Source of the DNA: a virus
Taxonomy: Duplodnaviria > Heunggongvirae > Uroviricota > Caudoviricetes
Virus record (IMG/VR): IMGVR_UViG_2537562194_000008
Length of the DNA stretch: 5,362 bases
Direction: 5' to 3' (one strand)
Below, piece after piece: positions 1 to 3,000 of this stretch; position 1 is the first letter of the stretch, and every line of letters starts with the position of its first letter. A program made the position numbers.

Positions 1-3000
1 TGCTGATTGATAAATGACAAACCTTTTACTACCTGCATTGAAAGAAGTAGACAAAACCAGACAATTATCATAACGAGCAAGAACATAATACCAACCATCA
101 TTATAATTAATCATTTCATATTCTTTCTTAAACTGTGGTTTGTAATATCCTGTCAGAAATGAAAAAAGCCAAAAATATGCCACAAAAGCAATCATCACAA
201 TCTCAAAAAAATGTTTTTTTATAAATGGCTTATCATAGAAGCATGATACCGATAAAAATCGCCCATAAGATCTTATCGAAATTGTAACCGCCAGCGCAAT
301 CGCTGCTGACAGTAGCAAAAGAGGTACCTGAATCTTCTGTCTCAATATAGAAAACTCAATAATTGCCGGCACAAACAATAATTCCACAGCAAAATAAAGG
401 CGAAATACATTTAGCTCTTGCATAGAATGTTTTCTTTTCACTGCGAAAAAGAATACAACACCAATACCCCAACCGATAAGAAATATAGCAATGACGATAA
501 CTGCAAAAAATAAACTTCTGGCAACATCATCAACACCTGCACCTACAATCCACCATGGGAAGCCGTAGTAAAAAGAAGTACCCCATCCATAGAAATAAGC
601 ACTCCCCCATCCAAGGCATCCCATGTAGGCAATAAAAAGTGAAGAACTCCTGAGCAGCGCACCATCCTTCATAACCACCCCAATACAAGATGATAACATT
701 GGCTTACAACTCATAACAAAAGCAATTCAATGCCGTCAAGAGGTTACAGGCTAAAAAAACTCTATTACATAGCAGCCAGCATGTTTACCGTACAAGTACA
801 ACTCAGGGCATAAAAAAAACCCACTCGGCAGCGGGTTTATACATTTTTTACAACATACCAAATTTGCATGAAGTATATGGCTTTTAATCCAGTTTTGCAA
901 TATTTTGCTGTAAAAATGCTGCCTTTTGTTTTGAACGTGTTCTCGTCACAAGCAATAAAGCATCACTATCAAGCTGTAGAAAAATGTGCTTCATTGCAAC
1001 CCAGCGTTCAGTAAATGTCTCGGACCAGTTTTTTGTTGTCACTCCCACCAATGATGCCAGTGTCTGGTATTCATAGGCCTCACGCCCTGCAAGTTCGCTC
1101 TTCACATCCTGTGCAGCCAGCCAGATTAACGTCTTCAGGCGATCCAGTGTCTTACCTGCAATTTTTCTGTTACTTAACAAATCTTTAAACTCGCTCCATG
1201 CCCATTGCGTTATGGTGACCTGATGCCCCCATCGAACGCTTTCGCTGTAACACCAAAGCAACCATGCTTTCTGATGTTCATCGAGAGACAAAACCGCGCG
1301 GCGCCATGAAGAGGTTGAGAATTCAACCGGGCTGACCAAAGCAATGGATGAACCTTTTGCGTACGACTGCTTACCGGAAGTCGGCGTATTATCCAGCGTA
1401 ATCATCTTGCCAGTTACCACATCCAGAATGCGCGGCTTCTTTCGTTTGTATGTACCAGTATCAAATTGTGCATGCTCCTGCCAGGCTTCGAGCTGGCCTT
1501 TCGTTGCTCCGTTCAAGTCAGCAGTAGCTGCCATAAGTTGCTCACGAACATACTGTAAATATTGGGTATTCATGCAGTAAATCCTTTCTATATTTTGGCA
1601 TAATTCTTCAACATTCGGTAATCGTTCAAAACCGAATCGGGGAAACGACATAAGCACACGAGCCCCCAGCGACAGCGAAGGAGTTCTGATATATAAGACT
1701 CAGACATCATTCATTCCCCGGTTCTCCAATATCTGTTTCACTCATCATCCATAACTACCTGTAATTGCCCCCCCCTTTTTTTGTAACAGTTCTTATATTG
1801 CTATATAGAATAGCCATTACTAATGCTTTTAAATTTAATAAAATAAAAATTATAAAAAACATAAAACACCACGCAAACACACTTAATAAAAACACCGTTA
1901 CATTAAAAGATAATAAAAACCGCAATAAAAAACGAATAAATCAATTGTCTCACGCAATTATAAAACATCATATTGATTACGCACCTTGTATTACAAACTC
2001 ATGTATGTAAAATACGCGCACCATTCAAAAAAAAGGAAGACAATAACATATGAAAAAAAGTGTCATCGCTGGCGTCTTTATTGCTCTGTCATTTACCACG
2101 TGTTCAGCTATCGCGAACAGCCTTGCATTATCATTAGCAAATGATGATGCAGGGAAGTTTCAACCAATACTTAATGATATTTATGGCAATAAACATGAAA
2201 ACAGAGATGATTACTCACAAGGCTTATTTCTGGGATATAGCCACGATATCTCAGACTCGAGCCAATTATCTCTCCATATTGCGCAAGATATTTACTCTCC
2301 ATCAGGCAGTAATAAAAGACACAACACAGCTGTAACTGGAGACAGAGCTTTTAGTGCATACACTCACACTGGTATTGAATGGAACTCCCTTGCGAATGAC
2401 TGGATTCGCTATCGATTAGGTACTGACATAGGTGTTGTTGGCCCCGACGCAGGCGGTCAGAAAGTACAAAATAAAGCTCATGAGATTATTGGGGCAGAAA
2501 AATATCATGCATGGGATGATCAAATAGAGAATCGCTACGGTTATACTGTAAAAGGGATGCTATCCATGACACCAAGTATGGATATTTTAGGTGCTAATGT
2601 TGGATTATACCCTGAAGTTTCTGCTGTTACTGGAAACTTATTTCAATATGTAGCATATGGCGCAACCATTGCCATTGGTAATGATAAAACCTTCAATTCG
2701 GATAATGGCTTTGGTCTGCTGGCTCCCCGTGGTTTAATGCATATGTCCGATACAAGCGGATTCAAATACAAGATTTTTGCAGGTATGGAAAGACGAGATG
2801 TCAATCGCAACTATACTCTCGAAGGAAAAACAATACAGACGAAACAAACAACAGTATCGCTAAACAAAACTGTTGATGAATATCAAGTTGGCGCAACAAT
2901 TGGGTATGCACCTGTAGCCTTCACACTAGCATTTAATAAAGTAACATCAGAATTCAAGACAGGGGATGACTATTCATTTATAAATGGAGCAATCACCTTC

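Follow-up and report, generated by a model that had tools for sequence, protein, structure and literature searches.

An STM1630/TfpB-family membrane protein gene carried as late-operon cargo by an Escherichia coli lambdoid prophage, with a candidate role at the bacterial envelope

The 5,362-nucleotide stretch analysed here (IMG/VR record IMGVR_UViG_2537562194_000008; hereafter the window) is the nin-to-late region of an Escherichia coli lambdoid prophage in minus-strand orientation, and at its edge lies an AT-rich gene (positions 1–672, minus strand) for an inner-membrane protein of the STM1630/TfpB family. We favour, by a modest balance of the evidence, the reading that this gene is lysogenic-conversion cargo of the prophage, a 'moron', whose product acts on the bacterial envelope. 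That the gene is intact, belongs to this family and is carried as cargo is near-certain; the reserve in our overall reading reflects thin functional knowledge, as the functional part would rest on genomic context, regulation in Salmonella and residue conservation. As an object the gene is already known: it is annotated in GenBank and RefSeq, it is placed in Pfam and PHROGs families, and its Salmonella relative has been deleted and assayed.

The initial annotation of this stretch could assign the protein to no family, a view that the searches overturn. The PF27470 label, which gene tables give as TfpB, is precomputed on all 104 homologues, including P0001, the representative of the near-identical cluster, and the recent RefSeq/PGAP product name for the E. 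coli gene is 'STM1630 family protein'. In PHROGs the protein matches phrog_1521 (unknown function; E = 2e-154). Among phage genomes, a translated search gave 100% identity to CPT_434_68 of the classic phage 434 ('putative membrane protein'; GenBank OL657226) and 98% identity to phage 2B8. CPT_434_68, WP_001302581.1 and WP_001299184.1 are one and the same protein (247/247), the records differing only in the choice of start codon, and phage 434 carries the gene in the same place, in the order Q82-type Q, terminator, gene, DUF3927/TciB and lysis genes; a function is given in none of the phage 434, RefSeq or phrog_1521 records. Scans of the protein with local Pfam (in a version without the PF27470 model), NCBIfam and PADLOC returned nothing significant, a Pfam scan of all 48 aligned members gave scattered chance matches only, and a literature search on PF27470, TfpB and Moraxella tfpB yielded nothing usable.

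Two named relatives anchor the family. P0075, the homologue from Salmonella, aligns with the window protein over 96% of the length at 46% identity, and its gene is 717 bp long and divergent from sseJ. P0075 is STM1630, as a published knockout primer encodes NSSMLLAYLGGLGWG, which are residues of P0075, and length and neighbours agree. STM1630 (SL1560) resembles the window gene in its 238 amino acids, its architecture and its AT-rich composition. It differs in being chromosomal, between the effector genes steB and sseJ and without Q or phage context, in having its own mapped promoter about 220 nt upstream, and in having modest published phenotypes and a function stated to be unknown. The second relative, Moraxella 'protein tfpB' (P0236; the name is from JGI), is 28% identical over 220 amino acids (E = 4e-22) and shares both the AYxYGWG...YYG(F/Y)PWW...ARSL motif and the C-terminal YY(I/V)L beta domain. 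It is longer, at 261 amino acids, and its gene lies between type IV pilin genes (PF00114 on either side), whereas the window gene has no link to pilins. Moraxella papers of 1990–91 reportedly described tfpB within a pilin inversion region. The name and this flanking pair of pilin genes would suit a type IV pilus accessory protein; as none of the examined Escherichia, Salmonella, Citrobacter, Yersinia, Avibacterium, Actinobacillus and Neisseria members has pilin or pilus-assembly neighbours, we consider such a role quite unlikely.

The family is small, as an exhaustive profile search of 1.8 billion representatives recovered no more than 72 clusters at the 50% identity level. Named members are from Escherichia, Shigella, Citrobacter, Salmonella, Klebsiella, Enterobacter, Cronobacter, Mangrovibacter and Yersinia among the Enterobacterales, from Avibacterium, Actinobacillus, Mannheimia, Pasteurella and Gallibacterium, and from Moraxella and the animal-associated Neisseria, Conchiformibius, Uruburuella and Alysiella. 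The window protein belongs among them both by its significant sequence match and by an architecture of about 235–260 amino acids, five helices with a glycine/aromatic-rich helix 1, and a C-terminal beta domain. We also noted a 100% identical copy on a 3-kb contig (JAIITD010000172.1; L003) binned as a Veillonella metagenome-assembled genome and a 55% identical partial copy (P0069) labelled as an Acinetobacter one; both most likely reflect binning contamination and not true hosts.

Read on the minus strand from 714 to 1, the window contains 238 codons without a stop, an open reading frame (ORF) of a length expected by chance with a probability of about 1e-7 at this base composition; each of the five other frames of positions 1–714 holds 12–17 stops. 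G+C content is 31–42% across positions 1–750 as against about 50% in the nin genes, and 36% in the gene itself as against about 50% in the phage backbone. The AT-rich ORF first pointed out here is therefore confirmed, and it is indeed open at the window edge; it is little longer than the part in view, and in identical copies (L001 and phage 434) it ends 45 nt past the edge, after 14 codons and a stop. That stop gives the normal C-terminus of the family, and we saw neither a frameshift nor homology to a lysis or structural protein, so the caveats once attached to the gene, a decayed fragment or a known lysis or structural function, fall away.

The window thus holds residues 1–224 of 238, counted from ATG 672. 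This ATG is the start common to full-length relatives, bar a few longer gene calls, and it is preceded by a Shine–Dalgarno-like GGGGTGG at 681–675. An older PGAP annotation placed the start at ATG 699, giving 247 amino acids, and the newer one gives 238. We accordingly read ATG 672, and not 714 or 699, as the predicted true start, and the in-frame upstream extension with these alternative ATGs (673–714, minus strand) is probably 5' leader and not coding.

Selection was gauged among six copies, from the E. coli phage, Citrobacter rodentium, an enterotoxigenic E. coli (ETEC) plasmid, Salmonella, Yersinia and another E. coli plasmid, all of them AT-rich (30–41% G+C). Synonymous sites are saturated (proportion of differences, pS, 0.66–0.82) and non-synonymous differences (pN) amount to 0.18–0.41, and the ratio of non-synonymous to synonymous rates (dN/dS) is 0.13–0.24 where computable. 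The gene in the window is intact and under purifying selection. These values, the retention of length and architecture from Escherichia to Moraxella, and the survival of an intact gene on Shigella virulence plasmids, which are rich in pseudogenes, make it very unlikely that we are looking at a functionless passenger or decaying remnant of mobile DNA. That alternative would account for the truncated and frameshifted copies that exist, for the many shortened homologues, for the PHROGs split families that cover halves of the protein and for the lack of a robust published phenotype.

The protein was first described as a polytopic membrane protein far larger than a holin, and this description holds. 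Hydropathy reveals four strongly hydrophobic segments plus an N-terminal segment rich in glycine and aromatic residues, with Phe, Trp and Tyr together making up 21% of the protein. A first AlphaFold model built from 30 close sequences was poor (predicted local distance difference test score, pLDDT, 61); with 48 sequences, including distant members, the model reached a pLDDT of 82.6 and a predicted template modelling score of 0.75. It has five long helices (residues 12–45, 56–88, 98–120, 125–145 and 158–190) followed by a small five-stranded C-terminal beta domain (193–244), a layout kept throughout the 48-member alignment, down to 12–28% identity. The only residues that 90% or more of the 48 members share (A24, A34, Y35, Y37, G46, F176 and G184) are Ala, Tyr, Gly and Phe and fall in helices 1 and 5 and in the loop following helix 1. 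The same alignment has no polar residue conserved family-wide, a hint that the protein is non-enzymatic and would bind or pack against something rather than catalyse.

Across the family, lysine plus arginine average 1.9 at the N-terminus, 3.5 in loop 2–3 and 4.1 in loop 4–5, as against 0.9 in loop 1–2 and 0.8 in loop 3–4. By the positive-inside rule, this distribution would give a cytoplasmic N-terminus and a periplasmic beta domain. No known fold relative of the model was found, and a profile search of PDB sequences gave 0 matches; nor do the transmembrane helices and beta domain match an MscS-like mechanosensitive channel structurally. We also considered a lipoprotein reading of the N-terminal 'YMGC' and rejected it, as the cysteine is not conserved.

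The gene had been placed directly downstream of a Q antiterminator gene and a promoter/terminator module, in the slot where other lambdoid phages carry late-operon cargo, and both placements were borne out. The Q82-type late antiterminator gene (884–1573, minus strand; PF06323, E = 1.7e-91) is supported by PGAP and by the phage 434 annotation; the mechanical ORF spans 884–1657, of which PGAP annotates 690 nt. In phage 434 and window-type prophages the order is Q, terminator, the gene, DUF3927/TciB, a small ORF, a SASA/NanS-p esterase, a pinholin, a signal-anchor-release (SAR) endolysin and spanins. In Stx1a phages the stretch from esterase to holin is common to these at about 97% identity, and stx1A and stx1B lie immediately upstream, in the same position relative to Q and the lysis cassette; it is this equivalent position of stx1AB, with homology resuming at the esterase and holin, that makes the cargo-slot reading correct. 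Other genes listed as late-operon cargo or morons are nmpC (in DLP12 and 434B) and lambda bor and lom. None of these, nor stx1AB, is related to the window gene in sequence or structure, and they encode secreted toxins or outer-membrane proteins rather than a polytopic inner-membrane protein; the likeness lies in dispensability for phage growth and a base composition atypical for phage.

The Q gene ahead of the cargo also varies. Another E. coli genome has the identical gene behind a differently annotated Q ('antitermination protein', which as in lambda adjoins a NinI-type phosphatase). Where prophages differ in Q, their homology stops near window position 816, at the terminator. A 46% identical relative follows a PF06530-type Q in Yersinia, so that the gene is found after three different Q types. 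Phage 434B forms plaques even though about 5.5 kb that takes in Q, the late promoter and the lysis region has been replaced by DLP12 DNA (PMC9119081), and a misc_feature in the phage 434 record shows that the stretch non-homologous to 434B covers CPT_434_68. A plaque-forming phage thus lacks the segment containing the gene, which indicates, if indirectly, that the gene is not needed for lytic growth. Among related phages the gene is therefore present in some and absent or replaced in others, as stx1AB, the three Q types and 434B attest.

Position might instead suggest an accessory of the lytic cycle, antiholin-like or a holin helper, that adjusts membrane state, lysis timing or release: this membrane protein is encoded by the first gene past the late promoter and terminator, in one transcription unit with pinholin, SAR endolysin and spanins. 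We judge this unlikely. The downstream lysis cassette is already complete, with a separate class II holin adjoining lysozyme RrrD/SAR endolysin about 2.9 kb downstream in identical copies, and phage 434B and Stx1 phages do without the gene. Family members also reside in core chromosomes and on plasmids without lysis genes, and a protein of 238 amino acids with a beta domain is unlike the holin classes, which run to about 60–150 amino acids, lie beside the endolysin and are needed for lysis.

In the prophage copies the gene is always followed by a 52-amino-acid DUF3927 membrane protein with a TciB-like label (L001 9031–9189; L002 6830–7233), and phage 434 has a further small membrane ORF after it. 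The pairing is absent from non-phage copies; a small ORF after Salmonella STM1630, tried as a DUF3927 counterpart, proved unrelated, leaving the pairing phage-specific. The 'TciB' label was dropped as a functional lead, since it traces only to uncharacterised phage P1 genes.

How the gene might be expressed can be read in part from its upstream DNA. A pR'-like late promoter candidate (TTGCAA-N17-TATACT, a motif match; 872–900, minus strand) overlaps the 3' end of Q, and between it and the gene sits a tR'-like intrinsic terminator (812–838, minus strand), a hairpin of 9 pairs (AAACCCGCTGCCGAGTGGGTTT) followed by a T-run, at the equivalent of which the phage 434 record annotates a terminator. 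The position of the promoter relative to Q is that of the lambda pR'/tR' late-operon layout, and Q-dependent read-through of tR' into the gene is plausible. Since only about 35 nt separate the pR'-like promoter from the terminator, constitutive synthesis of an RNA of about 55 nt is to be expected; its counterpart in Stx phages is a regulatory small RNA, StxS. An Rfam scan of the window matched no RNA family, and no clear terminator was seen after the gene.

The gene may also be expressed independently of Q. A candidate sigma-70 promoter (710–739, minus strand) comprises a −35 TTGACG at 739–734, an 18-nt spacer with a TG, and a −10 TATGAG at 715–710, and lies about 40 nt upstream of ATG 672; a second consensus match runs from 719 to 690. 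The pattern TTGAC(G/T)-N18-(T/A)ATG is kept upstream of the window copy, the copy on ETEC heat-labile toxin (LT) plasmids and the iro-island copy despite diverged flanks, and the latter two have no Q gene; it is this conservation in copies without Q that points to a promoter of the gene's own, which morons usually carry.

The distribution of the family bears most directly on what the protein might do. Of 5,426 complete E. coli genomes, 692 contain the 900 bases that adjoin the window edge, with an identity of 99% or more in 632, and the carriers (about 13% of complete genomes) are mostly Shiga-toxin-producing or enteropathogenic serotypes among the matches listed. The C. rodentium copy is chromosomal and directly adjoins lpxR, from which it diverges across 177 bp, with no phage genes nearby (L024 3863–5717), and in Salmonella STM1630 occupies the equivalent chromosomal locus, adjoining sseJ. 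ETEC contigs (L008–L011) carry a 59% identical copy (6001–6714) divergent from eltA/eltB (3987–5134) and about 870 bp away, together with STb and nearby insertion sequence (IS) elements, and a further ETEC-plasmid copy has STb, an AraC regulator and a two-partner secretion system in its vicinity. A 57% identical copy (5001–5714 in L034–L037) adjoins bor and the salmochelin genes iroB/iroC and keeps a remnant of the phage terminator upstream (AACCCGCTGCCGGGCGTTTTTTTATGCCC), which derives this segment from a prophage late region. A Citrobacter freundii copy stands behind tail-fibre genes at a prophage end. PLSDB holds 106 Shigella plasmids with a copy, at about 57% identity, and in Shigella flexneri pWR501 this is an intact 238-residue member (57% identity; L039 7001–7717), annotated as hypothetical, between the virA and spa40 regions. 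Unrelated housekeeping genes surround a solo copy in Neisseria animaloris, Avibacterium and Actinobacillus.

The family therefore consists of single AT-rich genes, found in acquired virulence regions in Enterobacterales and in the chromosome in Pasteurellaceae, Neisseriaceae and Moraxella. As no neighbour is conserved across all the settings examined, the protein most likely works alone. One further observation concerns the ETEC copy, which has about 70 bp of upstream sequence in common with the phage copy and so suggests that the LT neighbourhood is phage-derived.

These contexts also bear on the main rival to an envelope role, namely that the protein mediates superinfection exclusion or anti-phage defence, by blocking DNA entry, a receptor or a pilus, or by aborting infection. 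Such a function would fit a prophage-borne, phage-dispensable polytopic inner-membrane protein, like other prophage-encoded ones, that is followed by a DUF3927/TciB-like small membrane protein; the gene of the Moraxella member is flanked by type IV pilin genes, and phages commonly use pili as receptors; and horizontally spread single-gene units would suit a defence gene. It does not fit the housekeeping contexts or the regulation of SPI-2 (Salmonella pathogenicity island 2) type. The relatives in Pasteurellaceae and Neisseriaceae lie in housekeeping neighbourhoods and in neither a defence island nor a mobile element, many copies in enterobacteria reside on virulence plasmids or islands without phage genes, and STM1630, which is SPI-2 co-regulated and macrophage-induced, follows a pattern of host interaction. 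PHROGs classes the family as of unknown function, and PADLOC returned 0 families at E ≤ 1, a result still compatible with an uncatalogued exclusion function. The exclusion and abortive-infection roles proposed initially thus gain no support from an empty PADLOC search and from relatives in non-phage and in some cases housekeeping settings, and we regard them as possible but doubtful.

Published work on Salmonella STM1630 is the nearest source of functional data. The gene has its own transcription start, with a −10 element that is disrupted in strains of sequence type 313 (ST313), is bound by H-NS, and is expressed in SPI-2-inducing medium and within macrophages (PMC6785131 S1 Text); it also belongs to an SPI-2 co-regulated gene set (PMC2639726). 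Its deletion leaves growth in LB normal, and signature-tagged mutants are cited as attenuated in calves and chickens (PMC6785131 S1 Text). A near-absence of transposon insertions (PMC3632133) has been attributed to H-NS (PMC6785131 S1 Text).

Putting these lines together, we suggest the following course of events for prophage cargo that acts on the envelope. Upon prophage induction, Q would let RNA polymerase pass tR' into the gene, and the conserved promoter-like site just upstream would probably give Q-independent expression as well, with H-NS silencing relieved by counter-silencing, as has been shown for STM1630 in Salmonella. In the membrane the protein would have a cytoplasmic N-terminus and a periplasmic beta domain, and its action would be non-enzymatic, the conserved glycine/aromatic helix 1 and the beta domain binding or modulating an envelope component. 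The benefit would go to the bacterium in its animal host, and the protein would have no part in phage lysis, virion structure or replication.

Several points weigh against this proposal. With regard to the protein, the lysine-rich linker that follows helix 5 (YKPQFKKEY) is unusual for a segment emerging into the periplasm and makes the topology uncertain, and with a fold that has no known relative the mode of action is a guess from the model. The gene's own promoter is a consensus-level match, and the virulence-gene neighbourhood may only reflect shared AT-rich, H-NS-silenced mobile DNA. The experimental phenotypes concern the Salmonella relative, not the E. coli or phage copy, and they are weak and inconsistent. 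For example, deletion of STM1630 in strain 4/74 raises intramacrophage fold-replication (PMC6785131 S1 Text), and the attenuated transposon mutants could owe their phenotype to polarity on sseJ or steB. STM1630 scored as hypermotile in one screen (PMC4219756), a lead we dropped because it is not among the clean-deletion phenotypes (PMC4534456).

A broader proposal, which we put forward tentatively and think rather improbable as it stands, is that the family represents a novel class of inner-membrane protein, encoded by a single gene, that modulates the envelope without enzymatic activity and whose fold lies outside the solved structures. It would have been spread by phages, plasmids and islands and kept beside toxin, effector and lipid A-remodelling genes for a measurable effect on the dealings of mucosal Gram-negative bacteria with the host. 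Possible mechanisms within this proposal are cooperation with LpxR-type remodelling or control of pili, flagella or type III secretion.

The remainder of the window fills in the prophage setting. From the far end, an IS3 fragment is followed by NinE, NinX, NinF, a 70-amino-acid ORF, YbcO/DUF1364, RusA and NinH. Beyond NinH comes an AT-rich block of lpxR, then YlcG, then the PF06323-type Q. The lpxR gene (2050–3009, plus strand; PF09982, E = 6.8e-40), for a lipid A 3'-O-deacylase, is divergent from the ylcG-Q-cargo unit and is linked cargo within the same AT-rich block as the STM1630/TfpB-family gene; the whole 3-kb lpxR-ylcG-Q-cargo block is present in 618 complete E. coli genomes. In C. rodentium the gene and lpxR are equally diverged from the window (72.6% and 74.4% nucleotide identity) and the DNA between them is unrelated. 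The two look like an old linked pair, with ylcG and Q between them in the window and directly adjacent, with no Q, in C. rodentium; the link may be functional, through lipid A remodelling, or only historical.

Just before the lpxR block, at about 3151–3222 (minus strand), we noted a short N-terminal remnant of a second Q gene, labelled an incomplete 'antitermination protein' by PGAP and a lambda-Q-like fragment in the phage 434 record, which suggests that the original Q was replaced by the lpxR-ylcG-Q82-cargo block. At the far end an IS3-family element (orfA start; 5015–5362, with a plus-strand ORF from 5074) abuts ninE and interrupts the prophage upstream. In a related genome (L001) the nin region is disrupted by two IS elements (IS3 family and IS600), and a downstream gene annotated DUF6645, the counterpart of the phage 434 SASA esterase gene, is frameshifted. 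Given these insertions and the frameshift, window-type prophages are probably defective.

The wider significance lies in the family itself, a conserved membrane protein under purifying selection and without a known fold relative. Phage 434 and its natural derivative 434B provide a ready-made genetic pair. Were its role defined, the repeated presence of this passenger in enteric virulence loci would be explained, and it could become clearer why the gene travels with lpxR, the Ler-regulated gene for a lipid A deacylase.

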